This document shows, in pieces, positions 1,047 to 42,900 of a stretch of DNA of 54,314 nucleotides. Numbering within the stretch: the first letter of the stretch is position 1; every line of letters starts with the position of its first letter. The translations under genes were made by a program, and so were the position numbers. The notes under the pieces are model-generated. The model made no database searches. It was not told the DNA's origin and saw nothing but the letters and a program-made list of their open reading frames with translations. This DNA comes from a virus. Taxonomy: Duplodnaviria > Caudoviricetes. Location: IMG/VR virus record IMGVR_UViG_3300042868_004434, positions 1 through 54,314 of that record. One strand, given 5' to 3'.

Positions 1047-1236
1047 CTTGAGATACTTTCTGTAGCAGGGCCATTAAATGTTCCTCTGCCCGCGCTAGGC
1101 CCCGTATCACGCCGCAGAGTTCTCGATAAGCTTCAAAGGACTTACATTGGCCGTTGGCCAAGTCGTCCGCGTAGTTGTTCATGTCCTTACGGATGCTTTT
1201 ACGCAGTGCATCGGCAAACTGTTGTGTTTCGGTCAT
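1033..1236 (-). CDS. Small hypothetical protein of the head module
   Basis: 67 aa, overlaps both neighbours; LANG...SFEAYRELCGVIRGL motif. Confidence 0.7.
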   Translation of the reverse strand: MTETQQFADALRKSIRKDMNNYADDLANGQCKSFEAYRELCGVIRGLARAEEHLMALLQKVSQDDEE

Positions 1237-3665
1237 TCTTTACTCCCGGGTTGGTTTTGTTGTGCCGCCGCCCGTTGCTGTGCAAGTAGCTGCGCTTGGT
1301 GTTTGGCCACGTCTACGCCCGTTTGCACGCCCGCGCGTTCTTGCTCGGACTTTATCCTTGCGTGATCTGTCATTACTTTGGCAGACAGTGCGTCTTTGCG
1401 CAGCTCCAAGTCGTCCTTTTTGGCGGCTAGGTCTCCGATGACCTTCATGCTCTTCAACTGTATCTCTTTGTCCTTTTGGTCGAGCTCCTGCTTCTGCATC
1501 TGCAGTACGGGGTCTTGTGCATCTTGCTCGGCCTTCTTGCGCGCTTGCTCTTGCTGCGACTGCTGCAATACCTGCTGTCCGGCCTGCGCCATCATCTGTG
1601 CCAACTGGTGCTCCATCTCTGGGCTCAGCGGCTTGCCGTCTTGCGGCAGCGCCATGCCCAACTGCTGCTCAATGCGCTGGCGGTACGCAAAGCCTGCGTG
1701 CTCCGCAATATGCGCCATCATGGCCGCTTGGATCATCGGGGCCCGGGGGTTCTGGCCCACCAGCTGCATGATGATCGGGTCTTGCATAGCCGACATGTGC
1801 ACCTGTATGTGCGCGTCGTGGTTCTGATTCTGGAACGCCTTGACCGGCTCACCTTTGAGCGCGGCCATGTTCTCGGACACCGGGTCTTTGGGTTTGGCAT
1901 CGTCGGGCAGCGGTAGTATTTTGTCTGCATTCTTGATGCCCAGCACGCCCAGCATCTGTCGATGTAGCTGTGGGAGGTCATAAATGTCCGGTGCCATCTG
2001 GGCCAGCTGCACCACAGCCTGATACTGCACAACCCGCTGACTCATGGTCGCCGCGTTGGGGTCGCTCACCGGGATAATGTCTACGTGCTCGTAGTCGGTC
2101 TTCTTGGCATGGCGGTTGACCTCACCAGTGGGGTCATACTCATAGTCGTCCTCGGTGTAATCGCGGATAATGCCTGCCAACAGTCGCAGCTCCTGCTTCA
2201 TGCTGTAGTGCATGCGCGCTTGCACGGCCGACATCACCTTCAACTGGCGCTCAAGCAAAGCCAGTGTTGTGCCCACCGGGGCCTGCGCCGACATGTCCGA
2301 CACCTTCATATCCGCCGTGGCAGCAAACCTGCGCCCCTCTTCCACAATGGTTCCAAGCAACTGGAACAGCACCATCGAAGGCTCTTTGTAAGGTAGCGGT
2401 AATATATTGTCGCGCAGTGCACCGGAACCGATGTCCACGTCACGGAACTCGCCCGGACTGATCGGGGTGTCGTCCCCTTTAATACGCAGGCCACGGGATT
2501 TCAGTCCGCCGGGCAGGTTGCTCAACGTCCCCGCATCCACCAACTGACGCATGATGCTTGTTGCGCTAGTGGCAAACCCGCCGATCAGGTGGAACAGCCC
2601 GAAACCGTAGGCTCCGAACCCGGGGATGTACTGGTAGTGCACAAAATGTTGTCGTTTCAAGCGCAGTGGGTCGCGCTCGTCCCAGTTACGGCGGATAGAC
2701 AGCACCTCGCTGGTGCCTTTGATCAACGTAACAACGTACGGCAGCGCAATCCCGGTTTCTTCGCCGTCGGCATCTGTGTCTTCGTACCCTTTGAGGTCTA
2801 GGTCTACGTGTACCTCATACAAAATGTGGCGCTCGTCATTCAAATCACTGAAGCCGGTCTCTTTGTCCTTGGCTTTTTTAATGTCGTCAAGGTCTGTCAA
2901 CGGGGTGTCGCTGATCTCAACGTCCTTGTAGAACCCCGCATGCTGCAATTTCTTGATGTCGTTGGTGGTTTTACGCATAACGTGCGTCAACCGGTAGCAT
3001 GTATCCAAATCCGTGGTGCCGTACGGCAGAATAATGTCCTCTGCGGGCACAAAAACCGACGTTTGACGGCCCATGCTGGGGTCGTAGTACACCTTTTTGA
3101 ACGCACTACCGGTGGCTGGCAGGCTCCAAAGCATGCGCTCGTGCTCTGGGCGGTACTCCCGCATCACGTCCGTCATCTCGTAGTTCAAGTCGTGCTCAAC
3201 ACGCTTGGCCGCAGCCTCTTTCTCGGGCGTTTCTTTGCCAACGATCTTGGTACGCACAGGGCCTTGCGCGGGGAAAGCCTCAGTGATGGCCTCCGACTGA
3301 AACCGCACAATCGCTTCGGTAATCATGGGGTGAAAAACCCCGCACGCGCCGTCCCACGGCTCAGTGCGCTCCTCATATTTAAGCCCCAGCAGTTTCAACC
3401 CGTTGGTGTAGGCCTGCTCCCAGTCCTTGCGGCTGGCAATATCCTCACCAATAGAGGCGTCTAGGTCGGAGGCCAGCGCGGTTAATGCCCGCTCATCCAT
3501 GTCTTCGGCCAAATTGGCCCCGAACTCAGGTGCCGCTACCTCAACTTCGATCTCCAGCTCGGCCCCGTCAGGGATGATCTCTACTTCAATGCCCTCCATG
3601 TCCTGCGCGGCTGCGGCGAGTCCTTGTGGTGCCTGTGTAAAGGCGCGGTCTATGTTAGTGGCCAT
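1233..3665 (-). CDS. Portal protein (podovirus/P22-like, long Gln-rich C-terminal barrel)
   Basis: 810 aa just downstream of TerL; SRKDWE..Y..GL.LLG, GSAFKKVYYD, GFGAYGFGL, APVGTTLALLE motifs; Q-rich helical tail. Confidence 0.85.
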   Translation of the reverse strand: MATNIDRAFTQAPQGLAAAAQDMEGIEVEIIPDGAELEIEVEVAAPEFGANLAEDMDERALTALASDLDASIGEDIASRKDWEQAYTNGLKLLGLKYEERTEPWDGACGVFHPMITEAIVRFQSEAITEAFPAQGPVRTKIVGKETPEKEAAAKRVEHDLNYEMTDVMREYRPEHERMLWSLPATGSAFKKVYYDPSMGRQTSVFVPAEDIILPYGTTDLDTCYRLTHVMRKTTNDIKKLQHAGFYKDVEISDTPLTDLDDIKKAKDKETGFSDLNDERHILYEVHVDLDLKGYEDTDADGEETGIALPYVVTLIKGTSEVLSIRRNWDERDPLRLKRQHFVHYQYIPGFGAYGFGLFHLIGGFATSATSIMRQLVDAGTLSNLPGGLKSRGLRIKGDDTPISPGEFRDVDIGSGALRDNILPLPYKEPSMVLFQLLGTIVEEGRRFAATADMKVSDMSAQAPVGTTLALLERQLKVMSAVQARMHYSMKQELRLLAGIIRDYTEDDYEYDPTGEVNRHAKKTDYEHVDIIPVSDPNAATMSQRVVQYQAVVQLAQMAPDIYDLPQLHRQMLGVLGIKNADKILPLPDDAKPKDPVSENMAALKGEPVKAFQNQNHDAHIQVHMSAMQDPIIMQLVGQNPRAPMIQAAMMAHIAEHAGFAYRQRIEQQLGMALPQDGKPLSPEMEHQLAQMMAQAGQQVLQQSQQEQARKKAEQDAQDPVLQMQKQELDQKDKEIQLKSMKVIGDLAAKKDDLELRKDALSAKVMTDHARIKSEQERAGVQTGVDVAKHQAQLLAQQRAAAQQNQPGSKE

Positions 3666-4103: not shown

Positions 4104-6524
4104 CTAGTAGTACGCGGCGCGTGCGCGCCTAAACAGTTGGGGTTCGTCCGGTTCGTCGGACGCAAGGCGTATTAAACCACCTTGGCGGATGCGCAGCAAT
4201 GCTTGACTCACCGTATCCACGATGTCATCGAACTCGCCATTCGGAAATTCGGCCACTTGGTCGATCACCTCTTGCGCCCACCGGGTCTCTGGGGCCCACA
4301 CCATGCCGGAGCTGAACATGTCCGCTACGGCGTTGACCCGCACTCGCTTGTCGTTGCCTCGGCTGGGCGTAAACTCGTGAATTGGTAAGCCCGTGGCCCG
4401 CATCTCCTGTATCAAGGGGGCTCCGGCGGCTTTCTTCTCAATCACCACCATGTCCGGCTCCCACTCTCGGTAGTACTCGAACGCAAACTTCTTGAGCTCG
4501 GGGAACTCCTTACGACCATACCAGCAGTCGAGTAGCATTATCTGATCTTGATTCTCTTCCTCGTTGAACCACACGCCCCATGTTGTTACTGCACTGGGGT
4601 CGGAGCTGTCATTTTTGCCGTGGGCGGTATCCCATGACTGCAGGATGATGTCGCATTTCGGAGGCTTGGCCCCGGCCCAGCGCCGCCACCATTCGCGTTT
4701 TATCAGTGCGCCCTCCTCGGAGGTGGGCTCTTGCATGTATTGGGCAGCCCAGAACTGCGGCGCCATGCCCGCTTTCTTCGCCATAAGTTGTTCTACTGGC
4801 CATTGTTCTGGCCAAAGGCTCTTGCCGGACGGCATTATCGCGGGGAAGCGTACCTCGTTCCAAGGCAAGCTGTCGGGGTTGTTCTCGGCCCACATCAACG
4901 CCCGTCCGATAGGGTCTTTCTTCCCCCAGCGCGTGTTATGGCTCACCACGCCGTTGGCTATGAAGTTCTCGGTACGCTCGACCTCCATGTCAAAAACAGG
5001 CTCGTACCCATCTTCGACAATCTCAACAATCGCATCTGGAATGGTATCGCACGTATCTTGCAGCGGCTTCAAGCACTTCTGGTGTTTTACCTCGCCCGAT
5101 AGCAAGGTTGCAGTCGTTACACAGGAGCCCTCTAACTTTGTTCGTGTCGTGACAGTGATCGACGTAGAGTTTTGGCGTTTGCCCTGCTCTTGAATTCTCT
5201 CTTGTTGGTAGTTGCCTACAGATTGCACAACAGCCCTCTTGGCTTTCGCACATAGCGTCGTAAGTTTCCGTAGAAATACCATACCGATATTTAAGGTGGC
5301 TTTCACGCTTTTGCGCATCTGTGAGACGGTACTTTCCTTCTCTCCACACTTTCTTGCCGTGGCAACTTTTGCACAGCCCTTTTGCAGAGACGGGTTCGCT
5401 ACAACCTTCCGTTGTGCATTCGACACCGCGCCACTTACCCCAATGCCCTGCGCCGCGCTGCCCGAGTCGCCCATCTGCTCGCAGTTTTCGTCCGTAGCAC
5501 AGCTTGCACAACCCCTTGGCTTTGACGGGTCGCAGGCAGCCTGCGGTTGCACAACCACTACTAGGCAATCCCCCACCTTTAGGTCTCGTACTCTCACCCA
5601 TGATCTGACTCCGTTTCGATCAACAAGAAAAGGATGTCTCTTGTTTGCACGGACGATTTTACCAGAAGTCGTTGTTATTTTGTAAACAAAATCGGAAGGA
5701 TGCTTAATCCAATTTGTTATGCGGGAGGTATTTATTATTCCGTTGTCATATGTAGCAACGGTGTCCCCTACTTGTATGTGCTGAATTTCTTTCTCAGTTT
5801 CGTCTGCCATCAACACGCGCGTTTCGGCTGTCATGCACCCAATCATGATGATCCGCCCGCCCGGCATCAAGCGCTGCAACGGGCCCACCTGCACATACTC
5901 CCACGCGGTAGCGAAGGCTTTGTCGGGGTCTCCCGCCAGTACGGCCTGCTCGGACACCAAGTCATCGGCAATCAGCAAGTGCGCGCCGCGCCCGGCCACC
6001 GAACCACCGATACCAACCGCAAGGTACATGCCGCCCTTGGTTGTCGTCCAGTCGCCCGACGCGCTCTTGTCGCGGCTCACCACGGTGTCAGGGAATATCT
6101 GGCGGTACACCTCGCTGTCGATCATGTTCCGTATCTTGCGCCCGAAGGTGGCGGACAAGTCTGCGGTGTGGGTGACCATCATGATCTGGTGGTTCGGGTG
6201 CTGCCCCAAATACCACGCTACGAACAGGTACGAGATCGTCTCAGATTTACCAAAGCGCGGGGCCATGCTGACGGTCAAGCGTAGCTCCTCCCCGGTGGCC
6301 ACCTTGTGCAGCAGTGGGCGCATGTGTTTGTGGTGGGGCCCGACCTTGAACTCCGGGTAAACACGTTTACAGAAAGCCAGAAAGTCCGTCTTGGCGTTGA
6401 GTATGGCCCGTTTGTCCTCCAGCGCCTCTAGGTCGGCTAGCAGCTGCGCCTTCTCTGCAGCGGGCATGGCGGGTAGGTTCGCCAGTAGCGCGGCTACGGC
6501 TTCGGGGGACAGGTCGTCAAGCAT
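4104..6524 (-). CDS. terL: Terminase large subunit interrupted by a 301-aa intein (mature about 505 aa)
   Basis: Walker A MAPRFGKS, Walker B LLIADD, coupling motif IG/TRW split by the intein, nuclease motifs QSWDTA and FDDIVD. Confidence 0.95.
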   Translation of the reverse strand: MLDDLSPEAVAALLANLPAMPAAEKAQLLADLEALEDKRAILNAKTDFLAFCKRVYPEFKVGPHHKHMRPLLHKVATGEELRLTVSMAPRFGKSETISYLFVAWYLGQHPNHQIMMVTHTADLSATFGRKIRNMIDSEVYRQIFPDTVVSRDKSASGDWTTTKGGMYLAVGIGGSVAGRGAHLLIADDLVSEQAVLAGDPDKAFATAWEYVQVGPLQRLMPGGRIIMIGCMTAETRVLMADETEKEIQHIQVGDTVATYDNGIINTSRITNWIKHPSDFVYKITTTSGKIVRANKRHPFLVDRNGVRSWVRVRDLKVGDCLVVVVQPQAACDPSKPRGCASCATDENCEQMGDSGSAAQGIGVSGAVSNAQRKVVANPSLQKGCAKVATARKCGEKESTVSQMRKSVKATLNIGMVFLRKLTTLCAKAKRAVVQSVGNYQQERIQEQGKRQNSTSITVTTRTKLEGSCVTTATLLSGEVKHQKCLKPLQDTCDTIPDAIVEIVEDGYEPVFDMEVERTENFIANGVVSHNTRWGKKDPIGRALMWAENNPDSLPWNEVRFPAIMPSGKSLWPEQWPVEQLMAKKAGMAPQFWAAQYMQEPTSEEGALIKREWWRRWAGAKPPKCDIILQSWDTAHGKNDSSDPSAVTTWGVWFNEEENQDQIMLLDCWYGRKEFPELKKFAFEYYREWEPDMVVIEKKAAGAPLIQEMRATGLPIHEFTPSRGNDKRVRVNAVADMFSSGMVWAPETRWAQEVIDQVAEFPNGEFDDIVDTVSQALLRIRQGGLIRLASDEPDEPQLFRRARAAYY
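4935..5837 (-). mobile_element. Intein in TerL (Cys230-Asn530, +1 residue Thr)
   Basis: Block A CMTAETRVLMAD...IQVGD.V, block B RANKRHPFL, blocks F/G EPVFDMEVERTENFIANGVVSHN followed by T; removal restores IMIG-TRWG. Confidence 0.93.
5023..5601 (-). CDS. Endonuclease VII-family homing endonuclease nested out of frame inside the intein
   Basis: 192 aa; CAIC...LYVDHCHDTNKVRGLLCNDCNLAIG Endo VII signature, LKYRYGIS motif, two N-terminal C...GC..P..AKGLC..C zinc fingers; GGAG 7 nt before the ATG. Confidence 0.9.
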   Translation of the reverse strand: MGESTRPKGGGLPSSGCATAGCLRPVKAKGLCKLCYGRKLRADGRLGQRGAGHWGKWRGVECTTEGCSEPVSAKGLCKSCHGKKVWREGKYRLTDAQKRESHLKYRYGISTETYDAMCESQEGCCAICRQLPTRENSRAGQTPKLYVDHCHDTNKVRGLLCNDCNLAIGRGKTPEVLEAAARYVRYHSRCDC

Positions 6525-7089
6525 CGCCGTCCTTGGCCTTGACTTCCAGTGTCTCTATCTCCTGCACGGGCGGGAGCATGCTGGCCAGCTTAGCGCGGAT
6601 GCGCGCTTCGATCTCGTCTGCCGATGATTCTTTGTGGGTCACTTCGACCCGGGTGGTGAAGCTGTCGATGCCGGTCAGCTTGCCGGTAAGCTCGAGCGCT
6701 TTGAGGCGTATCTTGGCGTCGGCGTGTTTGGTTTCTTCGAGGAGTTTGGCCACCACGTAGCCGCGCAGCTCCTTGGCCTGCTCGATGTATTCCCAGTCGT
6801 ATTCGGACAGCATGCCTGCTAGGTGGCGTACCGCTGGTGGGACTTTGAGCGCGAGTATCGCTTTTTGTTTTTCCGCCTCGGTCTGGGCGGGGTTGGTCAC
6901 GGCGGCGAAAGCCGAACGTGCTAGGTGAAGCTGGTCAGCTTCGATCACATCGTCACAAGACCCCAGCGATGCCATGAACTCGGCCGTGCTGGCTTGGGCG
7001 GACAGGAGCGTGGCTGTGGATGCGTCCTCCAGATCAACGAAGTCCTCGGCATCCAACTGTGCGATGTGATTAAAAATTCCGGTGCCCAT
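6517..7089 (-). CDS. Probable terminase small subunit
   Basis: Overlaps the terL start; AAAAGGA RBS before ATG 7089; C-terminal RLKALELTGK.TG..F..RVEV is typical of TerS. An in-frame ATG at 7161 is an alternative start. Confidence 0.6.
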   Translation of the reverse strand: MGTGIFNHIAQLDAEDFVDLEDASTATLLSAQASTAEFMASLGSCDDVIEADQLHLARSAFAAVTNPAQTEAEKQKAILALKVPPAVRHLAGMLSEYDWEYIEQAKELRGYVVAKLLEETKHADAKIRLKALELTGKLTGIDSFTTRVEVTHKESSADEIEARIRAKLASMLPPVQEIETLEVKAKDGDA

Positions 7090-7124
7090 ATTCCTTTTGC
7101 GCTTGTAGGGTTTAGCGTGAGCAT

Positions 7125-7153
7125 AGTGTACACTAGCTTTGCCTGTGTCGCAA
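7125..7153 (-). promoter_or_regulatory. Sigma70-like promoter for the terS-terL-portal operon
   Basis: Minus strand TTGCGA (7153-7148), 17-nt spacer, TACACT (7130-7125); the -10 lies in the palindrome TAGTGTACACTA (7124-7135). Confidence 0.55.
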
Positions 7154-7237
7154 ACGGGCATGTGTCTTTCTCCCTGATTGCCGAGGTCGCTCCCCGGTCT
7201 TTGATCCCCGACGTTGCAAGACCTCGGGGATTTTTTT
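7140..7237 (+). ncRNA. Predicted small RNA with an anti-RBS seed (UGUCUUUCUCC)
   Basis: TACACT -10 at 7129-7134 on +; 5' hairpin TGCCTGT/ACGGGCA with a G-U pair; pyrimidine linker 7163-7173; ends in a + strand intrinsic terminator; no + strand CDS here. Confidence 0.5.
7204..7237 (+). terminator. Rho-independent terminator (plus strand)
   Basis: ATCCCCGA-C-GTT-GCAA-GAC-C-TCGGGGAT stem with a GNRA loop, running into T7 (7231-7237). Confidence 0.65.
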
Positions 7238-7240
7238 GGG

Positions 7241-7870
7241 CTACTTTTTCCAATACGGGATGTATCGTTGCCAGTCTTCGGTGTCCCACCGCCTACACAG
7301 CATCTCGACACGGGCGTATTGTTTCCTTCCCAACGTTCGACGCATCTTTTCTTCGGGGCTCACGGTATTTCTTCTATTGTTGGACTGCTCCTTTCTTGTA
7401 GCCCATTTGCAATTATTGGGTTCGTAATTACCGTCATTGTCCACACGCTCTACCGTGGCCCCCTCAAACGGGGGCTCGCCCATGTCCGTCAGGAACTTTT
7501 CAAAGTCGTGCCAGCGCTCGCACACCTTTATGCCTCGGCCTCCGTAGCTACCAAAATGTGTATGCGTGTCTGCGTAGCATCTCGCTATCATCCCAGACCA
7601 GCGACTGTATATCTTTGCCTGCGGGTGTCCTTTAACGCTATATCCCTCCGAGTATTTCTGGGCTTTCTTTCCCAACCGGGTAGAGCGCGCGCAGCCACAG
7701 CTGGTGGTGTTTCCGCTCTTGAGGTGCGCTGCCCACGTAAAAAACTTTGTTCCGCATTCGCACAGGCACAGGCATCTTCGCCGGGGTACTTTCCCAACAG
7801 GTCGAACCATCCTTGTTCTAAGTACTTCTAATTTTTCAAAATTTTTTTGCAGTGTTACTGGCCTGACCAT
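7241..7870 (-). CDS. Free-standing HNH-type homing endonuclease
   Basis: [56 protein letters not shown]; TAAGGAG RBS. Confidence 0.85.
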
Positions 7871-8132
7871 ACGGACTCCTTAAAAAGTAATAGTGTTATT
7901 GTATGCTGTATTTTTTAGAAGTCAAATTGTGTTTAATTGGTCTGCGTTCCCGTCCAATAGTGTATATACGCCGCACCCACATCACTGCCCAATACTGGGC
8001 CCTCCCCCCACCGTACCCTTCGCGTATACCACAAATAGCCCCCATTTACCCCCTATTGGTAAGATTTATCTATGCATTTCATATTGATTGCATAGGTTGT
8101 CCCACCTCTTTGGGCATTGGAGATTACATATC

Positions 8133-8570
8133 ATGACTAATACATCTATCACTACTATCAAAACCATAGCAGACTTCGGCTTTGCCGCAGGGCGCAGCGA
8201 CGCAGGTATTGCACAATATGCAGCCAAGTACCATGCGCTATACATTGGCGCTGATGAAGACACGCAAGACGCTATGCGCCGGGACTACTGCCACAACTAC
8301 CTCGTGGGCAAGTACAGCTATACCCATGCGCAAGTAGCCATTATTGCTGAGACAAAACGCACAGAGCGCAGCGAGGAAGACCAGCGCGCTTGGAACAATG
8401 CGCAAAGCAACTTTAACTACCGGGTAGTAAACGACTGTGGCAACGTGGTCAAAGCGGCACACAAGCCCGTCAAGCAGGTGCGGGTAGCCAAGGACTTGCA
8501 AACGACCATCGCGGGCCTTGTAGCGCAGTTTGGCAAGGATGCTGTGCGCGAAGCTATGAAGCGTGTGTGA
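8133..8570 (+). CDS. Hypothetical protein, first gene of the early arm
   Basis: GGAG RBS, ATG 8133, 145 aa. Confidence 0.7.
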   Translation: MTNTSITTIKTIADFGFAAGRSDAGIAQYAAKYHALYIGADEDTQDAMRRDYCHNYLVGKYSYTHAQVAIIAETKRTERSEEDQRAWNNAQSNFNYRVVNDCGNVVKAAHKPVKQVRVAKDLQTTIAGLVAQFGKDAVREAMKRV

Positions 8571-8576
8571 GCTGCG

Positions 8577-8593
8577 GGTTAGAACTTCTAACC
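8577..8593. repeat. Palindrome GGTTAGAA-C-TTCTAACC, copy 1
   Basis: Perfect 8-bp inverted repeat just after a stop codon. Confidence 0.9.
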
Positions 8594-9003: not shown

Positions 9004-9015
9004 AACCTTCTAACC
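8998..9015. repeat. Palindrome copy 2 (2-nt spacer: GGTTAGAA-CC-TTCTAACC)
   Basis: Read directly. Confidence 0.85.
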
Positions 9016-15158: not shown

Positions 15159-15242
15159 CCACTGCGACGCCGTGTCGCAGGCAAAATACACGGTATAACA
15201 AACGTCAGCGAGACTGACACAACCACGAAAGAGAGAAAGACC

Positions 15243-16367
15243 ATGACTAAACAACTCAGCGCAACCCAAGTAAAGAACCTCATCAAAGCTATCGGCGGCA
15301 AGCGCACGGTGCTGGTAGAGGGTGAAGCCGGATCGGGCAAGACTTCCATTCACTACGCGCTAAAGGCAGACCCAGCGTTCGCGGAGTACTACGCCCCTAA
15401 GCCCATCGACTGTACACAGTTGAGCGACGGCAGCGTGTGGATGCCCGACATCGACCGTGCGCGCGGCGTGTCATGCGAGTTGCCAAACGAGCGCTTCGGT
15501 GTCAGTGAAGAGAACCACAAGGGCCTAGAAGGTGCCAAGCCAGCACTCATTTGTCTGGACGAGATCGCCAAGACGCGGCAGTTCATTAAGGACGTGCTGG
15601 CCCCGATCATCTACGAGCGCCGCATTGGTAACTACGAGATGCCCGAGGGTAGCGTAGTGTTTGGCTGCACCAACTTGAGCGAAGAGGGTTTGGGTGACAC
15701 GATGCAGGCGCACTTGCGTAACCGACTGGTGATAGTACAGATGCGCAAGCCAACCAAGGACGAATGGGTGCGTGACTTCGCTATACCGCGCGGGCTTAAT
15801 GCCGAGGTAATTGCCGCTGCGGAGATGTACCCAATGGCGTTCGAGTCGTTCACGGACTACCGCACGGGCGGCGCCAAAGCCGGGCGCAGCCTAGCCAAAG
15901 ACAACCCATACATCATCGACCCCAGCGCGCAGTCGCAGGGCCAAGTGGTGACGCCCCGCTCACTGCACACAGCCAGCGACATCGTTGACGCCAAGGACAG
16001 CATGGACGAGCAGACCCTACAGTGTGCGCTTAGCGGCGCGCTGGGCGATGCGTTCGCGGCCAACATCATGACCATGATCCGCTTTGGCCAACAGTTGCCG
16101 ACGTTCGAGCGTGTGATGGCCGACCCCGGCGGCACGAAGGTACCAGAGAACGCGATGGCGGGCATGGTGCAGATATTTCAGTTCATCAAGCAAGTGCGCG
16201 ACCGTGAGCAGGCCGAGGCTGCAAGCGTGTACGTGGGGCGCATGAAGGAAGAGCTTAAGTCTTTGTTCGTGAACAACATCTGCAACAGCAGTGTGCTGGA
16301 CAAGTTCGGCCTGAGCAAGACCTTCGCTCAGTTGCTGGCCGCTAATCGTCAATACCTAGGAGCATGA
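15243..16367 (+). CDS. MoxR-like AAA+ ATPase
   Basis: Walker A GEAGSGKT, Walker B ICLDE, sensor-1 TN, Arg finger LRNR, sensor-2 TPRS. Confidence 0.85.
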   Translation: MTKQLSATQVKNLIKAIGGKRTVLVEGEAGSGKTSIHYALKADPAFAEYYAPKPIDCTQLSDGSVWMPDIDRARGVSCELPNERFGVSEENHKGLEGAKPALICLDEIAKTRQFIKDVLAPIIYERRIGNYEMPEGSVVFGCTNLSEEGLGDTMQAHLRNRLVIVQMRKPTKDEWVRDFAIPRGLNAEVIAAAEMYPMAFESFTDYRTGGAKAGRSLAKDNPYIIDPSAQSQGQVVTPRSLHTASDIVDAKDSMDEQTLQCALSGALGDAFAANIMTMIRFGQQLPTFERVMADPGGTKVPENAMAGMVQIFQFIKQVRDREQAEAASVYVGRMKEELKSLFVNNICNSSVLDKFGLSKTFAQLLAANRQYLGA

Positions 16368-18735: not shown

Positions 18736-18752
18736 CTTTTTAGGAGAAAGAC

Positions 18753-19202
18753 ATGAGTAAATTAGTAGCAAGCGGGGACAGTTGCCACAACGCCCTTAGC
18801 GAGCGTGAGCAATATGAGATAGCTAAAATGAATGCAGCAATGCACAACCGCCATGTGTTCCAAGCGTGCGCGCAGCAAGATTATGCTAAGCAAACGGGCA
18901 TGGGCCTTCTTAGTGTCAGCGCTATGGGGGCTATTCAAGGTAACAGCTATCTAGAGGTCAAGCCCCAGTTTGGTGTACTGTACAGCGGAAAAGAGCCGCT
19001 GCCTGACGACTGGGCCGGGGCGAAGATAACTAGCTATAAGCGAGAGCCGCGCGAAACAGGGTGGCTGATTACGTTCGTGAGCAAGTGGGACTCGGGGCTG
19101 CGTATCCAACTATGGCTTGACCTTGAAGCGGTTAATGGTACTGAGGCCCACACCATCGCGGCCACGTACATGGAAGCGCTAAACCAACGGAGGGTGGGGT
19201 AG
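18753..19202 (+). CDS. Hypothetical protein
   Basis: TAGGAG RBS, 149 aa. Confidence 0.65.
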   Translation: MSKLVASGDSCHNALSEREQYEIAKMNAAMHNRHVFQACAQQDYAKQTGMGLLSVSAMGAIQGNSYLEVKPQFGVLYSGKEPLPDDWAGAKITSYKREPRETGWLITFVSKWDSGLRIQLWLDLEAVNGTEAHTIAATYMEALNQRRVG

Positions 19203-19316: not shown

Positions 19317-19811
19317 ATGAAGCAGATCACACAAAAACGGCTAAAAGAAGTATTGCACTACGACAAGGCAACAGGACTTTTTCTTTGGAAACAAAAGCGC
19401 GGGCGACAGGGCGCGGGTTCTATTGCGGGCAGCGCCACAGGAAGTGGCGGGTATGTGAGACTTATGGTAGATGGGCAGTTGTACTTGGCTCACCGGTTGG
19501 TATTCTTGTATGTGGAAGGGTCTATGCCAAAAAAGGATGTGGATCACAGAAACGGCCTGCGTACCGACAACAGGTATGCGAATCTGCGGCAAGTTACGCG
19601 GAGCACCAACAACCAAAACCAAAGAAAACCGCACCCGCGCAGTGCGACTGGTTTTCTTGGCGTGCGGTTAGATAAACGGTATGGGAGATACTATGCGTCT
19701 ATCTATTATGACGGACGAAAACACGGGCTCGGCGGCTACACCACGCCTGAAGAAGCGCATGCCGCATATGTGGCAGCAAAAAGAAAACATCATTTAGGTT
19801 GCACGATTTAG
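19317..19811 (+). CDS. HNH endonuclease with a C-terminal AP2-like DNA-binding domain
   Basis: LHYDKATGLF.W, AHRL, VDHRNGLRTDNRYANLR..T...N..N, TGFLGV...YYASI...LG.Y.T.EEAH.AY; GGAGG RBS. Confidence 0.9.
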   Translation: MKQITQKRLKEVLHYDKATGLFLWKQKRGRQGAGSIAGSATGSGGYVRLMVDGQLYLAHRLVFLYVEGSMPKKDVDHRNGLRTDNRYANLRQVTRSTNNQNQRKPHPRSATGFLGVRLDKRYGRYYASIYYDGRKHGLGGYTTPEEAHAAYVAAKRKHHLGCTI

Positions 19812-19820
19812 GAGAAAGAC

Positions 19821-20702
19821 ATGTCAGCCAATTTTAATTTGGATAGCATCGCACTACTTGTAGAGTTCAACAGTTCCATTTGGACTGCGAGGCGGCTTGA
19901 TAGAAACAAATCAACGGAGGTAGTACAGAAAGCCAGCGCGCAGCAAAAAGGCGCAGCGCGGGTGACGAAGAACCTGCTCGCAGGCAGGCCCGAGCTGGAG
20001 GAGATCACGTCCTTAGTGGGCGCAGCGCGCACCTATGTGTACGACAACACCTTGCCTTGGTCTAACAACGGGCAGCGCCTACTGGTTACAACACGCCTAC
20101 CAAAGTTCGATGCGCGCATGCAGTTGTTCAAGGAGGAGTTCGAAGCCAAGGTAGACGGCTTCGTCAGCGTGTACCCAACGCTCATTACGGCGCAAGCTAT
20201 GGCGCTGGGTGACATGTTCAACCGCGCGGAGTTCCCGCAGGCGTCCGAGATACGTACCAAGTTCGCGTTCTCTTTTGACTACCTGCCCGTGCCTGCAGCG
20301 GGGGACATTCGCGTGGACATTGGTACCCAAGCCCAAGAGGAGCTACGCGAGCGCCTAGAGCACATGTCTGTTGTGCGGGTGGAGAAAGCTATGGCCGAGA
20401 TCAATGAGAAGCTCAGCACTCATTTGCGCAGGATGGCGGACAGGCTTACTACGGACACAAACCCCGACACCGGAGAAGGAACGGTAAGAAGGTTCACAGA
20501 CACGCTAGTGTCTGGTGCACTAGAGTTATGTGATCTGGTGGCTGACTACAACGTAACAGGGGACGCGACCCTTGCGCAAGCTAGACGGCAGCTTGAGACC
20601 GCGCTTAGCGGCGTGACTGCCCAGACCCTAAGAGATGACCCGGCCAAGCGTGAAGACGTGCGCACTGCGGTCAACGACATCCTAAACAAGTTCACTTTCT
20701 GA
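19821..20702 (+). CDS. DUF3150-like protein
   Basis: 293 aa; IWTARRLD, V.KNLL, TLPW...G.RLL, F.FDY; this family usually accompanies AAA and VWA genes. Confidence 0.55.
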   Translation: MSANFNLDSIALLVEFNSSIWTARRLDRNKSTEVVQKASAQQKGAARVTKNLLAGRPELEEITSLVGAARTYVYDNTLPWSNNGQRLLVTTRLPKFDARMQLFKEEFEAKVDGFVSVYPTLITAQAMALGDMFNRAEFPQASEIRTKFAFSFDYLPVPAAGDIRVDIGTQAQEELRERLEHMSVVRVEKAMAEINEKLSTHLRRMADRLTTDTNPDTGEGTVRRFTDTLVSGALELCDLVADYNVTGDATLAQARRQLETALSGVTAQTLRDDPAKREDVRTAVNDILNKFTF

Positions 20703-28294: not shown

Positions 28295-28309
28295 CCAAGG
28301 AGAAAGAAA

Positions 28310-28585
28310 ATGGAAATACCAAAGACGTTTGAACTAGGCCATCTCACATGGCGCGTACATACGGACAAGCAGGGGGTTGCTACAGGCGTGTACGGGATGT
28401 GTTACCCAAGCTATCAGACGGTACGTGTGCGCATGCGCGCCCCAAAGAAGATGACAGAGAGTTTTTGGCACGAGGTTACGCACGCTATTCTGTTCGACAT
28501 GAAAGACCCGCGCTGGGACGACGAGCAGTTCGTCACGGCATTCAGCAAACGGCTTACCCAAGTCATTCACACAGCGGAGTTTTAA
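28310..28585 (+). CDS. Small HExxH metallopeptidase-like protein
   Basis: YG.C...I/V...ESFWHEVTHAIL...E.FV. Confidence 0.65.
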   Translation: MEIPKTFELGHLTWRVHTDKQGVATGVYGMCYPSYQTVRVRMRAPKKMTESFWHEVTHAILFDMKDPRWDDEQFVTAFSKRLTQVIHTAEF

Positions 28586-30017: not shown

Positions 30018-30116
30018 GGTTTGCCACCCGCCACAAACGGGTGTATAGTAAGTTCTCTGTTCGACGAACGGCCCTTAAACAAGGCCCTCGTCGCGTACTG
30101 CTTTTGGAGAAAGAAA

Positions 30117-30440
30117 ATGGCAATTGGTCTACGTGGCCCGATACGCTACGGGCGTCCGCTACCTGAAACAAACGTCGAGGCGTTGCTAGACATGTGGTGT
30201 ACGAAGTTTGAAGACAAAACAATAGTGGTTGAGGACGTCTTCCGCGAAGGGGCCGAGCACCCCGACTGGATTGTTGAGCAGGTATTGAGAGCCTTGGCGC
30301 ACATGCCCTGTCAAGCGAACGTGGTGTCAGACACGATGATGTGGACGCACCGCGACTTTTATATTTCTGCGCACGAATCTTTTGGCGAACAAGACCTGCG
30401 CATCTGCATCCGACCGATACCAAAAGGAGAAAGAAATTGA
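30117..30440 (+). CDS. Hypothetical protein
   Basis: GGAG RBS before ATG 30117, 107 aa. Confidence 0.55.
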   Translation: MAIGLRGPIRYGRPLPETNVEALLDMWCTKFEDKTIVVEDVFREGAEHPDWIVEQVLRALAHMPCQANVVSDTMMWTHRDFYISAHESFGEQDLRICIRPIPKGERN

Positions 30441-32066: not shown

Positions 32067-32090
32067 TCAACAAAACAAACGGAGAAAGAA

Positions 32091-32525
32091 ATGACCACTG
32101 AAACTGAAGACGGCGTAGACATCGCCGAAACCAACGTCACGATGGATAGACTCGCAAGAGTGTACATCAAAATGCGGGACAAGCTGGCCCAGCTAACCCG
32201 TGAGTACGAAGAAGCCGAGGCAGCGATCAAAGCCCAACAGGCCGATATTGCCGCCGCAATGAAAGACATCATCCAGACGGCTGGAGCCAAGTCGATCAGT
32301 ACCTCCCACGGAACCGTTACATTGAAGACCAGCACCCGCTACTACGCACAGGACTGGGAAGCGATGTACAAGTTCATCGTGGAGCGCGATGCAGCGTTTC
32401 TACTGGAGAAGCGCATTGCCCAAAAGAACATGTCTGACTACCTTGAACAGAACCCCGGCGATGTACCTCCCGGCCTGAACACGATGTCGGAACTGTCCAT
32501 CTCTGTAACCAAACCACGCAAGTAA
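32091..32525 (+). CDS. Replication-module hypothetical protein
   Basis: 144 aa; coiled coil, T..GT, DW..M..FI, LLEKRI, PPGL. Confidence 0.7.
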   Translation: MTTETEDGVDIAETNVTMDRLARVYIKMRDKLAQLTREYEEAEAAIKAQQADIAAAMKDIIQTAGAKSISTSHGTVTLKTSTRYYAQDWEAMYKFIVERDAAFLLEKRIAQKNMSDYLEQNPGDVPPGLNTMSELSISVTKPRK

Positions 32526-36924: not shown

Positions 36925-39900
36925 TCACTCGCCTTTGATCTTTCCGTAGGCTTCGCGGAACGCAGCCGCAGTCTGGATTTTGTACTGGCGTATGTTGTCG
37001 AGCATGCGGCGCTTCTCCTCTGGACTCCTGTTAGACGCCCGGATCGCGGTCTCCGCCTTGGACAACTGCCCCATCTTCTGCGTGAAGGCCCCGGCCACGG
37101 TAGCGCCCGCGTACTCCTTGGAACGCTCCTGCAAGAGCTGCATAGCCTGTGCCTTTTCGCCCTTCTCTAGCAGTCCGTCCACGGTCTTCTTGAAGGCAGT
37201 GAACTCGCCCATCTTCTCGTAGGTATCGTTGATGATGCCGCCTGCGTCGTTAGGCTGGAATACGCCGCCGATCATTGGCCTTGAGGACAGCCGACGTGCT
37301 GCCTTCTCTGGGCTGTCGCTGGCTGGCATGAGGGAGTCCACTGCGGCCAGTACGAACATCCCCACGCCGCCGGTATAGCCGTTCAGCAACTGCTCCATCA
37401 TGATGGGCGACTGTCCAGTGAGTTGGCCTACTTCTCGTGCGATCTGTGTGGTGTTCTCACGAAATTGGAATGGCTTTTCCATGCCCTGCTCGGAGCGGGA
37501 CAGGATGTCGCGGCCCGTAAACAACGACTTGCCGGTGCCCACCTCGATCAAAGGCTTGATGGCTTGCGGAAGGAGGAAGCTGCTACCGCCGGGGATGGTG
37601 TTGCGCAAAATGGTGCTGAAGGCGTTGACGGCCTCGTCGCTGCCGTGCTTGTCCGTCATGCTACGGTACAGGGCCTCGGGCACGGACTTGAAAATATAGC
37701 CCAGCTCGAACGGCACCGGTACACGTATGGCTTCCTCTACGCCCGGCACACGCACAAACCAGTTACCGTACTTCTGCTCGGGCAATGCATTCTTGTAGGC
37801 TTCGTCGTCCTCCATCGCGGCGGCGTAAGCCAAGCTGGCTGCAGCCAGCAACGTGCCTCGGGCGATCAGTTTGCCCTTGATATTCAGGCGCTCGTCGTTG
37901 GGCATGTTCCCGGTAAACGCCTTGTACAGCACATTCAAAGACTGAATCTGTGCGTTCAGGAAGGGGATCATGGCGTTGGCCATGTGGATGCTAGGTGACG
38001 CGCCGCGCTTGCTAAAGTTCATGGACTCCAGCGTCTGCAGGGTGGCCTCCATCTCCGACATGCCTTGCTTTATGTAGCTCCCGTACTGCGCGCGTCGGGT
38101 GAGGGCATCGGCCCCCATCGACATCGCCTCTAGCTTGCCCAAAGCGTTGAGCCAACCGGACTTGCCTGCGGTAACGTCGCGCAGCACCATCGACATGTCT
38201 TCGGAGGTGCCCGTAAATACCTGCCCACCAGTGATACCCCGGTTGTTCAGAATTTCCTTATTCTTGGCGTTAATCTCTTTCACCGCACTCCACACGGGCG
38301 TGATGTTAGCCCCGCTACCCAGCGCAGCGCCCAGTGAGTCACGGAAAACCTGCCTAGCGGCGTATACCGGGCTGATAGTGACGGCCTTGCGCAACAACTG
38401 TGCGGGCATGGCCAAGAGGCGCACCACGCCAGAAAGCTGGGTAGGGATACCCGCCATGCCTTTGACCAACAAGTCCGCAGGGATGCTATCGGGCGTGTCC
38501 ACGCGGGCGAACTTCTCCGCGCCATTGTCATAGAACTTGACGATGGTATTGCCCTTGACATCGTGCCCGTTGCCGATGGTGGCCATGCCCATATCCTGCA
38601 GCTCGAACGCAGCGTTCTTGGTGGCTATGTTGTTCAAGGCCATGTCCAGAATCATGCTGGTGTTCTGCACCGCGCTGGTGGTGAAATCCAAAATAGGCCT
38701 ATCGCCGCCCACCAGCTCCTGCAGATGTGGCTGCTCCTTCATGTTGCCTATACGGATGGGCGACTCGCTACCAATCAGCAGCTCGGCCACGCCGTTGCGA
38801 TCCCGGTAGTACGGGATGTAGTCATCTTCTTTAACCAACTTCGCGCCCACGTCCTTGCTTATTGCGCCGCTTTGCTCTAGTAGCTTGATTAGGTTGCGGT
38901 TGTACTCGTTGTACTGGCTGCGCGCGTCTTCGAAGACATCCTTCAGGCCCGGGGTGTTCTGCACCTCCTGCGCAATAGCATCCAAGTCGGCCTGCGTGAT
39001 GTCGCCGCCGAAGTTAAGCGTCTCGATGCCTTTACTCTTGGCGCGGATAGCCGCCATGTAGCCGGTGAATAGCCGGGTGACGTAGTTTTTGTCTTCTATG
39101 GACGCCTTGGCCAGCGTGTCTGCGATACCCTTGAGGTTCGCGCCCTTGACGCTCTCGATCATGTACTCTTTTTTGCCGTCCGCCCGGGTCTTTTCTACAC
39201 GCTGGGGCACGCCGTTCGCGGCGGCTACGGACAGGAAGTGCTGGCGCTGGTCGTACATACGCAGGTAGTACATCATTTGGGAGCCCTTCAGCGGCTCCAT
39301 TACCCGAGACAGACGCTCAAAACCGGCAAAGCGATCCACCAACTGCGTCTCAAATGCGAGGCCGGACAAGTTGTCTTTTATCTTGCCCCACCAAGGCTTG
39401 TCCTTGGCCACGATGCGGTCTACCACATCTTTGGCGGAGCCTGTTGTGCGCTGCACACTGGGAGTACCTGCGCCCTGTATGCGGCGCGAGGGCATCATGA
39501 TCTTGTCCACGAGGTCGGCCACCTGCTTCGCCGTGGGTGTCGGGGGTTTTTGTGGCATACCGAACATGCGGCGCACGAAGTTCTTTAACCTATCCCACAA
39601 ACCGTACTTGTCCAGCTTGGCCTGAAACTCGGGGTTAGTGCGCGCCTCGGCTACAAACTCACGCACATTGGGAATCTCTTCGTTAGCAAAGGCTTTACTG
39701 GCAGCGACTTGGCGCTGCATGCCCTCTAATCCTTTTCGCGCTGCGGCTTGCTCGGGGGTAAGCGTAGCCGGGTCTGCCAGCAACACGCTGTCGGTAGCCG
39801 CGTGGTATAGCTCGTGCATCACGTCTTCCATGTATGCGTCGGGGCGCATGACAATTTCGTTCGTCTCTGGGAAGTACATGCCCGCCACTTCGTTACCGGC

Positions 39901-42900
39901 GTTGTCACGTATGTCCGGGTTCACCGATATTTTGGTGCGCAGCACCAGTGGGCGCACGCTAGCGGCGAGGGGGTACCCGGCCTTGATAAGCATGTCCGCG
40001 GCGTCCAGAATACGGCCGTCCGCGACCGCAGCGGCCAGTTCGGGGGTCATATCCGTTGAGGTGCGGAAAGCCCGGTTTGCCTGAGATGGTGCAGCTTTCG
40101 GCCCCTCCCCGCCGTTGACTGCGCGCGCTGTGCGCGAAGACTTCTCCAACGCCTGTTCTGCAACGGGGCGGGCTTTCTCCAGACGGGCTACGAAGCCGGT
40201 ATACTTTTCGATGGCTTCCGCGTCGTTGTTTTCCTGCGCTTCTTCCAGTTTGAACTGGGCCTTTTCCAGCAAGGTTTCGATCTTGGATAGCTCAGCCAGC
40301 GCCTGCTCATTTGCGCGCATCTTCGGTGCACGCCCCCCCTGCGTTATCTTCCCGCCACGAACTGGTTTCACTAACGGGCCTGCTTTGCGTAGCGGTAGTG
40401 CGCCGGAGGACTTACCCGTTGATGCGTCGATACCCCGCTCCAGCGTTAGGCGATTTGCGTCGTCTTGCGCCTCCTCCGCGCGTTGTGCTGGGGTCAGTAT
40501 CTCGGTCTTTTTCGAGCGCTGCTGTGCCTGCTCTTGCAGGCGCACGAGCTCCCGCTTTTTAGAGCGTAGGTCTGTAAGGTCTTTACGGCGCTGAAGAATG
40601 GTCTTCTTGGCCTTGCCCGGCTCAAGTATGGCTGCTTTCTTTTCACCTATCTTGATGTCCAGCTCCGCTAGGTGCTCCGCCAACGCCTGCTTCGCTGCGG
40701 TAGACATCTCTGTCTCGTTAGACAACGTACCGAAAGCTATGGCTATTTCCTTGCGTATGTTAGCTGCTTCGTACTTGTCCTTGTTGCGCATTGACTTGGA
40801 AGCAGTCTCGTCCTTGGAGCGTTCTTCTAGTTCTTTCGCACGGTCTTGCAGTTCAGCTATGTATTCGGTGGTCTTGCGCGCTTGCTCGAAACTGACGGCC
40901 GTGCCGGGAATAGCCTGCAGCCGTTCCAGTCGTTCCTGCTCCGCTTTGCGCTGGGCTGCGTCCGCAGCGGTTCGTTGTATAGGGGTGTCTCTTGGCAAAG
41001 CCTCCTCTACCTGCACAGCCACGCGAGCATCGCGCGCCTGCTCTAGCGGCCGCAATAGCGCTTCAATTTCTGCAGCTAGCTGACGGCTCTCCGCAGCGCG
41101 GGCCTGCAATTCTGCGGTAACTCTTTCTGTGTTGCGTGCTGCGGTGGCCTTGGCGCGGGTCAAGACCCCTTGGGCCGTAGATGATTCGCGTTTGGCCTGC
41201 TTGCGCGCGGCTTGCGCTTCGGCGCTATCGTTCTCAGCCACTGCCGTGTTTAGCGCGTCTTGGGCGGCGACTAGGCTAGATTGGGCAGTCTCCATAGCCC
41301 CGGTGGCGTCGCGCAAGCGCAACTGCAGCTCCATGTCGCGGCCTAGGTAGGCCAGCACACTGCGGTCTAGTGGGTTGTTCTGGCGCTCCAGCAAGGCGGC
41401 GTGCTGCTTTGTGGCTTTGTCTGCGGCGGCTGCAAGGGTATCTAGCTGCGTCTGGGTGTGCCCGCCGTGGGCTAGGGCGTCTTTGTACCGGCGGTGTGCT
41501 GTGGCGGCTGCGTCTGCTGCGGCCTGTACTTTTTCATCCCCGCCAAACTTGGCGGTGTTCTTGGCAATAGTGTCTACTACACGAGCGCGCTGGTCTTGCG
41601 CAGCCTTCAGTGCTTTCTGTGCGGCAGCAACGGCTTTACGCGCGGGCTCTAGTTTTGCCTGCACCGCGTCCATAAGGCTCTGTTGCTTGGCCACCGCCGC
41701 CACGTACTTGTCCGTGGCCATCTGAATAGCCTGCGCACCTACACGCTTCGTCGCGGTCAGCATGGTCTGCAATGTGCCGATAGACTCGCGTAGCTCGGCG
41801 GCTTTGGCTTCTAGGGAGGCAATCGTCCTGTGTGCCCGGGCGGATGTCTGCAGCGCCAGCCCTACGGCTTTGCGAGACTCGTTGAGTGCGTCGCTGGCTA
41901 GGAACTGCTGAAACGCTTCAGGCGTGTCAAAGATAACGCCCTGCAGCTCGGTGTCTGGAAACATGTCGCCCTGCGGCACCTCGTCCGAACGCTTGCTCTG
42001 CGCTACACTGGCTAGATGCTTTTGCACACGCGCGTGTACGTCCGTTATGTCTTGTCCTATGCGTGTGCGGTGCAACAGTTCAGCTACGTCGGGCAGCTCA
42101 TCTGCGGCTGTCAGTTCGGGCAGGCGGCTGCGCACGGTTTGTAAGAAAGGGGAAACCTTACCGGACTGCTGTAACTGGGCAAACTGTTGTTGCACAGACT
42201 CTGGCGAGATGTCTGCGGCACGTTCAATGGCTATGTCTTGGGTAGGGCTGCGGGTGCCTGCAAGGTCTGCGGCCACCGGGGCCGTCAGTTTGCCTTTTGG
42301 TGCGGGTTTGTCCACATCCAGTCCGGGCTTGCTCTTGATGGCGCGCATCTGCTCCAGCAAGGCGTCTACCTGCTTGCGGGCTTGGGTGTTGTTGGGGTCT
42401 GCCTTGTACTCGCGCCGCGCGGCTTGTAACTGTAGCGCCAGTGCCTGCAACTGCGCTTGCTTTGTTTGCTCGCTCTCTACCTTAGTTGCCGTGTACTGCC
42501 CGGGGAACAGGCGTCTCTGCTCGGTCGTGCCGTAGGGCAGCGCCGCGCGCTCCATACCCTCTATTTCCAACTGCGTTTGGCGCTCTTTGCGTGCTTCGCC
42601 AGCGTAGCCGGGTTCTTTGTCAGCTAGGCCCCGCACTCCGGCCACTTCCTGCTCTACACGCTGGCGTTGCTGTACGGCGGTCTCCCGCCCGGTGGCCATT
42701 TCGTCGGCTGTCTGCTGATCTGCCGCCGCCGTGGCCTGCACACTGTCTTTGGTGAACAAGCCCGGGTTTTGTTGGCGCAGCGCGTCTATTTTCTTTGACA
42801 GCTTCTCTATGGCGTCCACGTCACCGATCTCGCCCGCTTTGCGCAGTGCAGTCTGTGCGGTAGCGTACTGTTTATTCAGCGCGTCGTCGGTAGGCCCCGC

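Follow-up and report, generated by a model that had tools for sequence, protein, structure and literature searches.

Small RNAs (sRNAs) that pair around the ribosome-binding site (RBS) of a phage mRNA include sar of phage P22 and OOP of phage lambda. The c4 antisense RNA of phages P1 and P7 is likewise described as a phage small RNA that pairs around the RBS of a phage mRNA and blocks its translation (PMC12197685). In T4, a protein acts at many such sites: RegA, of 122 residues, is reported to compete with the ribosome at about 30 early and middle mRNA initiation regions, at A+U-rich sites (PMC3014915). Among bacterial RNAs, Burkholderia anti-hemB (RF02837, ncS04) and the toxic RNAs (RF02278; ncS03, ncS05, ncS27, and ncS62) are described as CU-rich and complementary to RBSs, and overexpression of ncS27 slows growth (PMC5688073). 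The N4-like Pseudomonas phage LUZ7 has putative sRNA1, sRNA2, and sRNA3, which are reported as abundant, shorter than 250 nt, intergenic, and found late in infection, with a defined start and terminators (PMC9163698). Here we describe a candidate small RNA of about 97 nt, on the + strand at 7140..7237 of the IMG/VR virus record IMGVR_UViG_3300042868_004434 (Duplodnaviria; Caudoviricetes), upstream of the TerS-like gene (terS). The window, which is the whole stretch of DNA analysed, is a linear viral record, 54,314 bases long, with a completeness estimate of 83%. A literature search, with supplementary files outside its scope, found no description of this element.

The element consists of a 5' hairpin, a CU-rich linker, a second hairpin, and an intrinsic terminator. 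In the predicted fold, the 5' hairpin (7140..7160, +) has a 7-bp stem (7140-7146/7154-7160) and the loop GUCGCAA; in most relatives, this loop is a closed GCAA tetraloop. The linker UGUGUCUUUCUCCCUGAUU (7161..7179, +) is unpaired in the centroid fold and contains the proposed seed TGTCTTTCTCC (7163-7173, +). Its core, UCUCC (7169-7173, +), is near-invariant and is conserved together with its flanks in alignment A4; the CU-rich unpaired stretch reads UGUCUUUCUCCCUG in the window, with UCUCC as the core of the family. The linker is the reverse complement of a full initiation region, comprising the Shine-Dalgarno sequence, the spacer, and often the AUG. The second, weaker hairpin occupies 7180..7198 (+) and is followed by the terminator (7205..7237, +), with its stem at 7205-7230, a GCAA loop at 7216-7219, and U7 at 7231-7237. 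The hairpins, the linker, and the terminator had been named in a first-pass annotation made from the sequence alone, and all were found in place; its further claim that the element runs opposite to the flanking genes also held, the TerS-like and HNH genes both lying on the - strand. A simple terminator scan of the window listed 7140-7160 and did not list 7205-7237, probably owing to the interrupted stem of the latter. Two marks of a trans-acting base-pairing sRNA are present, namely, a Rho-independent terminator on the RNA's own strand and a conserved, unpaired seed that is complementary to target initiation regions.

The same arrangement was found across relatives. An IMG/VR scan with the TerS alignment showed that 562 of 599 pattern-matched stretches encode TerS relatives. 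The best 80 of these 562 loci were taken, 63 of which had non-redundant upstream regions; together with three loci from metagenome-assembled genomes (MAGs), they gave 66 relatives with TerS identities from 37 to 97%. Read on the sense strand, which is that of terS, nearly all loci showed one layout upstream of terS. It opens with an A-run of 5-9 residues, followed by two hairpins, the first of them GC-rich, and by a GGAGA-type motif; then come another hairpin around TTGC and, 17-18 nt further along, a TAnAnT hexamer and terS itself. The A-run and GC hairpin, which form the terminator on the antisense strand (the + strand of the window), were present in 61 of the 66 non-redundant relatives, and 56 of these 61 loci also had the GGAG motif and 47 also TTGC. 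A covariance model built from five window-clade sequences only (R1, from alignment A3) detected the element in 43 of 52 sources, with one match each and always antisense to terS. A second model (R2), built from the 43 elements found by R1, gave exactly one match per genome in 11 of 11 whole phage records (about 629 kb), always upstream of terS and with no further match at E ≤0.1 in these records; R2 also matched several more distant loci. The element of the window scored 115.9 bits with R1 and 84.8 bits with R2 and was the single match in the window.

No Rfam family reached the gathering level in the whole window. Anti-hemB (RF02837) matched 7165-7237 (+) at 27 bits, compared with a gathering threshold of 49.5 (E 8.8e-05 for 161 nt). 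Among 12 loci searched with this model, matches on the antisense strand scored 29.9 bits for L008, 27 bits for L004, and 26.5 bits for L005, all below the threshold. The Betaproteobacteria toxic small RNA (RF02278) reached 16 bits, below its gathering threshold of 50 (E 0.4). The element is probably a new phage sRNA family and is absent from Rfam.

Covariation was measured in alignment A4. In this alignment, 93.3% of the cells were paired, compared with 62.5% in shuffles; compensatory changes occurred at all 23 of the 23 modelled pairs; and the covariation score was 0.503, compared with 0.125 for shuffled alignments (0 of 500 reached the observed score) and 0.04-0.07 for slid partners, with the reservation that A4 was fitted to the covariance model, so that its pair counts lean towards structure. 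Helix 1, the 5' hairpin, had compensatory changes at 7 of 7 pairs. Helices 2 and 3 were 87-90% paired across relatives and had compensatory changes at 6 of 6 pairs, and helix 4, the terminator, was 97.1% paired, again with compensatory changes. Stems of the window clade showed such changes too, for example, the 5' hairpin of L007 and the second hairpin of L005. Because A4 was fitted to the structure, an alignment-free test was also carried out. The arms flanking GCAA gave -5.10 kcal/mol when taken from the same phage, compared with -3.41 kcal/mol when swapped between phages; the observed value was reached once in 5000 permutations. RNAalifold was also run on a plain MAFFT alignment (A2, 25 elements), which gave four spurious pairs with misaligned stems; this alignment was rejected, and the covariance-model alignment was used instead.

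The first-pass annotation had assigned the structure to the + strand on account of its G-U pairs, GNRA loop, and U tail. In the window alone the evidence was mixed, as the single-sequence fold was unremarkable on either strand (-35.6 kcal/mol, z -1.45, for the + strand; -32.9 kcal/mol, z -1.86, for the - strand); it was the relatives that supported the assignment. The antisense strand (window +) gave the better fold for 35 of the 38 distinct sequences and for 19 of the 22 representatives chosen for low redundancy (Wilcoxon p about 1e-4). The antisense folds contained 68 G-U pairs and the sense folds 24, and GNRA loops (GCAA, GUAA, GAAA, and GCGA) and the U-tail occurred on the antisense strand only. 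This asymmetry in folding, G-U pairs, and GNRA loops shows that the structured molecule is the RNA of the window + strand. We consider it very likely that the element is a conserved structured RNA unit of that strand.

The linker complement GGAGAAAGA occurred seven times in the window, compared with a mean of 0.26 in 100 dinucleotide shuffles (maximum 2; none reached 7). Six copies lie on the + strand, at 18743, 19811, 28299, 30106, 30426, and 32081, and one lies on the - strand, at 7173..7165, where it precedes ATG 7161; all seven sit 1-3 nt 5' of an ATG or a TTG. The complementarity extends over 11 nt at gene 18753, where GGAGAAAGAC is followed by ATG (18743..18755, +), and at gene 19821 (19811..19823, +). 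It covers 9 nt at gene 28310 (28299..28312, +), open reading frame (ORF) 30117 (30106..30119, +), the helicase gene 30437 (30426..30439, +; TTG start; PHROG phrog_62), and gene 32091 (32081..32093, +). The ATPase gene 15243 (PHROG phrog_1297) is preceded by GAGAAAGAC (15233..15245, +), and GGAGAAA precedes 13986, 17201, and 19244. These matches agree with those reported in the first-pass annotation. The most stable duplexes predicted in trans were those with genes 19821 (-22.1 kcal/mol) and 18753 (-19.4 kcal/mol), and the duplex with the ATPase gene was put at -15.4 kcal/mol. At the - strand site, read-through transcripts from the HNH gene would fully complement the RNA (-35.3 kcal/mol).

Among the translation initiation regions (TIRs) of the window, 6 of 43 on the + strand shared at least 8 nt with the linker complement, compared with 1 of 22 on the - strand. 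The comparison was extended to 11 genomes, which were the window (G000) and the whole records of ten relatives (G001-G010). Matches of at least 8 nt were found in 31 of 351 TIRs opposite terS and in 4 of 398 TIRs on the terS strand, so the earlier observation that genes of the late strand largely lack the motif was borne out.

We then counted, in each genome, the TIRs that share at least 9 contiguous nt with the phage's own seed and compared the count with that for seeds in which GGAG was kept as the core and the flanks were shuffled (500 shuffles). The window had 6 such TIRs (shuffled mean 0.57; 6 of 500 shuffles reached this number), G002 had 4 (0.20; 8 of 500), G008 had 9 (0.47; 12 of 500), G001 had 3 (0.60; 33 of 500), and G009 had 3 (0.63; 45 of 500). 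Summed over the 11 genomes, there were 26 TIRs compared with 3.7 for shuffled seeds, a sum that none of the 500 shuffles reached. The sense complement of the seed is of the GGAGAAAGA type in the window and G001, and the matching RBSs are of the same type. In G008, it is AGAGAGGAGAAAGCATG, and 13 genes carry AGGAGAAAGC(A) before ATG, 12 of them with the full AGGAGAAAGCA; in G002, it is CAGGGAGAATGACAG, with five sites that have GGAGAATGA(CA) before the start; and in G009, it is AGAGGAGAAGCAATG, with about five to six genes that have AGGAGAAGCAA. Orthologous genes carried the variant of their own phage. This was seen for the helicase (window 30437, G001 9231, and G008 38251), for orthologues of gene 28310 (G001 7513 and G008 37023), and for orthologues of gene 32091 (G008 39869 and G009 3665). 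The 13 genes of G008, which lie at 25519-40254 (+; loci L110-L111), share an identical 10-nt initiation region, AGGAGAAAGC, and are strikingly uniform.

Promoter-like sequences flank the element. The palindrome AGTGTACACT (7125..7134) provides TACACT as a -10 hexamer on both strands. The -35-like TTGCGA of the terS (late operon) promoter (7148..7153, -) lies 17 nt from this -10, and the sole TTG-type -35 candidate for a + strand promoter, TTGTAG (7103..7108, +), lies 20 nt from TACACT at 7129-7134. In relatives, the -10 is mostly palindromic as well (AGTGTACACT or AGTATATACT). A sense -10 of the TAnAnT type was present in 38 of 38 located loci and an antisense -10 in 33 of 38; these and the other promoter calls are consensus matches and not mapped start sites. 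On the sense strand, TTG stood 17 or 18 nt from the -10 in all 38 loci (TTGCnn...TA(C/T)A(C/G)T), and this site plausibly drives terS. On the antisense strand, TTG stood exactly 17 nt upstream of TAnAnT in 22 of the 38, and no other spacing occurred in more than three loci. A start about 7 nt 3' of the antisense -10 would coincide with the first base of the 5' hairpin (7140-7141 in the window). Judged by these signals, most of the family, with the window clade as the exception, appears to have a small but complete transcription unit, about 75-125 nt long, with a sigma-70-like promoter of its own. TTGC, the sense -35, also complements the GCAA loop in the antisense 5' hairpin and may be under dual constraint, as a -35 and as a tetraloop complement.

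The 5' leader of terS in relatives (window 7090-7124, -) contains a conserved CGCCCAnCGAGG..ACAAGCC block. ACAAG in this block is the complement of the -35 of the antisense promoter (CTTGT), and a single stretch seems to do double duty, for the divergent promoter and for the terS leader. The block is 3 nt further from the -10 in the window clade.

Trans anti-RBS repression of the motif-bearing + strand genes is a plausible mechanism and the best supported by these data. The sRNA gene would stand back to back with the late-operon promoter (that of terS, terL, and portal) and, in most relatives, would share its palindromic -10. The + strand promoter would initiate at the 5' hairpin, and the GC-rich hairpin and U-tail would end the RNA about 75-125 nt on. 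Its unpaired CU-rich seed would pair in trans with the near-identical initiation regions of early and middle + strand genes, which in the window would include the helicase, an ATPase, and genes 18753, 19821, 28310, and 32091, and the pairing would hinder ribosome binding. Because the -10 is shared with the late promoter, the RNA may emerge alongside late transcription and help to stop the synthesis of replication-phase proteins; it is only the shared promoter architecture that suggests this timing. We put the probability that the + strand of 7140-7237 is an sRNA that pairs in trans with motif-bearing + strand initiation regions, and thereby blocks translation, at about 0.5.

Several results lower this estimate. 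No TIR with a match of at least 9 nt was found in G003, G004, G005, G007, or G010, and only one in G006, so that 6 of the 11 genomes showed no excess. The TIRs of G001, at a length of at least 9 nt, fit the seed of G002 more often than their own (6 compared with 2). Co-variation of seed and RBS would be equally expected if the sense strand merely copied the consensus RBS. The duplex energies in the window did not differ between + and - strand TIRs (p 0.57), and the mean of the seven best was equalled by 78 of 300 flank-shuffled seeds; the separation from shuffled seeds lies in contiguous-match counts only, not in duplex energy. The + strand -35 candidate of the window clade has a poor 20-nt spacing and was seen in three window-clade loci only, and TTGTAG is not conserved in L006 or L007. 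The RNA data, which came from three metatranscriptome runs of one study, gave contigs on 5000-9500 only at 5103-5370 (run X1) and 6041-6279 (X2), both in terL, and none from X3; these low-depth contigs carry no strand information and are uninformative for 7140-7237.

The claims of the first-pass annotation that concern regulation therefore stood in part. The trans-acting anti-RBS sRNA is supported by the conserved, covarying + strand structure and by the terminator, and it is weakened by the window duplex energies and by the six genomes without an excess. Covariation between seed and RBS, which had been proposed as a check, was found in five of the 11 genomes and also at orthologues. In the proposed ranking of targets by duplex energy, genes 19821 and 18753 do lead, but the energies neither separate the strands nor beat the shuffled seeds.

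The + strand unit may also be a transcriptional device rather than a base-pairing regulator, acting through promoter competition with a by-product RNA or as an insulating terminator, for example, in concatemers. Two opposed promoter-like sites use one -10 palindrome, the terminator is the best conserved of the helices, and the middle transcripts of LUZ7, an N4-like phage, are reported to extend through late genes in the antisense direction (PMC9163698). The genomes without an excess of extended seed-RBS matches and the unexceptional duplex energies of the window would also be in keeping with such a device. However, it would leave the near-invariant unpaired UCUCC unexplained, as well as the seed extension that follows the phage's own RBS variant, also at orthologues, and the two further covarying hairpins. 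We regard this explanation as unlikely.

The RNA may instead be a real sRNA whose targets are mainly host mRNAs, that is, a general anti-Shine-Dalgarno inhibitor like the CU-rich toxic sRNAs of Betaproteobacteria. The UCUCC core would pair with any strong Shine-Dalgarno sequence, a generic target would fit the genomes that lack extended phage matches, and the sub-threshold Rfam similarity to anti-hemB (27-29.9 bits) and RF02278 lies on the same strand. Nevertheless, these scores are far under the gathering thresholds, and in five genomes the part of the seed that extends past the core tracks genes of the phage itself. We regard mainly host targets as very unlikely.

A third explanation places the motif on the - strand, as a real RBS for a short upstream ORF or for an extended TerS that starts at ATG 7161, with the hairpins as a sense leader. 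The in-frame ATG (7159..7161, -) noted in the first-pass annotation does exist. It follows GGAGAAAGACAC at an ideal Shine-Dalgarno spacing and would lengthen TerS by 24 residues; moreover, the motif equals the phage's own RBS consensus, and the HNH gene lies upstream on the same strand, with read-through possible as the hairpin has no U-tract in that direction. GGAG and ATG at proper spacing were found in 22 of 63 loci, and in 11 of these 22, including the window, the frame was open into terS; these 11 represent roughly six clades, compared with a rough chance estimate of 2-3.

The start of TerS does not agree with this explanation. The TerS-like protein has 604 relatives at E ≤0.001. Among 16 aligned relatives, 11 begin within three residues of the window Met of ATG 7089, and the 5 with longer called N-termini have a Met exactly at the ATG 7089 position; MGTG opens the protein in the closest relatives (74-89% identity). 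In place of ATG 7161, CTG is found in L002, the closest locus; L003 lacks a start codon there and has a TAA in frame within the proposed extension; and L006 has TTG, with a stop after 12 codons. Given these losses, the 24 additional residues are not conserved as coding sequence, and the GGGAGAAAGACA motif is kept in all three loci despite the loss of the ATG. No ATG at Shine-Dalgarno spacing was present in 41 of the 63 loci, and neither a conserved start at this spacing nor a conserved frame was found in relatives. The peptides encoded by the in-frame and upstream ORFs, of 4 to about 40 codons, share only what the promoter palindrome imposes. In addition, the conserved terS promoter lies downstream of the motif, relatives have no co-directional upstream gene, and the folding and G-U asymmetry points to the other strand. 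The frequent ATG has an alternative reading, in which the seed reaches over the AUG of its targets; CAU stands 5' of the seed in many elements. A longer TerS from ATG 7161 is therefore largely excluded, on comparative grounds, as the reason for conservation, and a - strand RBS is highly improbable.

It is barely probable that the RNA is the leader or attenuator of the + strand early operon, with a terminator that is conditionally read through as in processive antitermination: the layout of promoter, two stem-loops, and terminator would suit it, and where relatives lack the HNH insertion, the first early genes begin about 100-300 nt downstream of the unit and in its orientation, but in the window an opposite-strand HNH gene intervenes and the unit is undecayed, further conserved promoter-like repeats separate the terminator from the early genes in relatives, and the seed-RBS co-variation would be unexplained.

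The gene calls in the window and in relatives are heuristic. The late and structural genes lie on the - strand. They include the HNH endonuclease gene (7870..7241; PHROG phrog_374, E 1.2e-53), the TerS-like gene, the TerL gene, the portal gene (3665..1233), and further genes from 54,181 down to the ORF at 44562..36925. The TerS-like gene (6517..7089, -), taken from its family-conserved start (MGTGIF...) in alignment A1 and in homologues, lies upstream of the TerL gene and has no Pfam or PHROG match of its own. TerL (6524..4104, -) has 806 residues and contains an intein; Pfam Intein_splicing covers residues 239-530 (E 1.6e-18) and separates the terminase N-terminal and nuclease domains. The replication-type genes, including those for the ATPase, DNA polymerase, helicase, and primase, lie on the + strand from about 8133 to 36733. 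The element is located within the 151 nt that separate the HNH stop from the conserved terS start.

The HNH gene is part of a segment (7244..7955, -) that is absent from close relatives. In blastn comparisons with L002, L003, and L006, the alignment breaks at 7243 and resumes near 7956. The segment is 712 nt long and includes a promoter-like site of the HNH gene's own (7925..7898) that is sigma-70-like (TTGACT, 16 nt, TACAAT); L002 has 114 nt at this place. From this comparison, the segment has the appearance of a homing-endonuclease insertion that separates the RNA unit from the control region of the early genes. L002 in turn has about 400 nt between terS and terL (3626-4025) that are absent in the window (6524-6537), where terS overlaps the terL start; this is probably an additional small gene or another mobile insertion. 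In relatives L004-L025, conserved motifs, one of them AACACTGTTCC-like, occur about 100-330 nt upstream of terS (window about 7956-8132). The region from the terminator to the early genes also has inverted repeats, GCTATAAA..TTTATAGC with short loops, or two to three direct repeats (three in L009). These motifs might act as early promoters, perhaps of the hairpin type recognised by a virion RNA polymerase.

The 2545-aa ORF at 44562..36925 (-) had as its best PHROG match phrog_18222, of unknown function (E 8.7e-26), and a weak local match of 224 residues to phrog_2206, "virion RNA polymerase" (E 3.3e-06); it may encode a very divergent virion RNA polymerase. The gene order and the two-strand layout of the window phage presumably resemble those of N4. 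Because the match to virion RNA polymerase is weak, we call the phage and its family only possibly distantly N4-like. A tblastn search with TerS gave zero matches in 50,697 cultured-phage records, and blastn of 6400-8000 against cultured phages gave short HNH pieces only. A TerS search of genome contigs found the three MAG contigs, whose phyla were discordant; therefore, no host was inferred.

The phage family is large (562 of the 599 IMG/VR stretches) and wholly uncultivated, and its element adds a structured-RNA family that is well supported and for which a covariance model is at hand. Should the RNA be expressed and act in the proposed way, no earlier conserved sRNA would be known to govern a virulent phage's own multi-gene translation programme, and the unusually uniform RBSs of phage early and middle genes could serve as regulatory addresses besides being strong initiation signals. 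Its compact design, with a two-way promoter, a shared -10, a -35 that doubles as a tetraloop complement, and a terminator, may be of use in synthetic biology. Even if pairing in trans fails, the late operon is headed by an antisense unit whose conservation and covariation call for an explanation.

Among the known systems, anti-hemB has a model with which the window + strand aligns, below threshold, from end to end, including UUUCUCCCUG. However, the Burkholderia sRNAs are described as chromosomal and as acting on host metabolism genes, with the CU stretch in a hairpin loop, whereas the window RNA is phage-borne and divergent from the terS promoter, carries its CU stretch in the linker, and has its best matches in the phage's own genes. 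The window RNA would resemble anti-hemB and the toxic sRNAs in action but, with scores far below the thresholds, belongs to neither family. Among phage RNAs, the closest precedents are immunity RNAs with a single target, for example c4 of P1. The c4, sar, and OOP RNAs are those of temperate phages and are mostly encoded in cis, and their action in an immunity circuit is confined to one or two sites; in contrast, the window RNA would have targets in many genes that do not overlap its locus, and no lysogeny genes were seen in the parts of the phage examined. The uncharacterised LUZ7 sRNAs lie between orf69 and orf70 and, of what is described for N4-like phages, come nearest to the window RNA. 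T4 RegA, as described, shares with it the logic proposed here, a phage-encoded block of many initiation regions; RegA is a protein that acts on A+U-rich sites, whereas the effector in the window is a candidate RNA that would pair with the Shine-Dalgarno sequence and spacer. No relative of RegA was encountered, although no search was aimed at one. We therefore suggest, tentatively and with some doubt, that the element is an RNA counterpart of RegA in a virulent phage family, transcribed away from the late (terS) promoter by way of the common palindromic -10, whose seed would shut off early and middle genes that bear a phage-specific extended Shine-Dalgarno-plus-spacer "address". Co-evolution of seed and address would explain why the RBSs are near-identical within a genome and different between genomes, and on this comparison T4 RegA would be the nearest functional analogue among phages.

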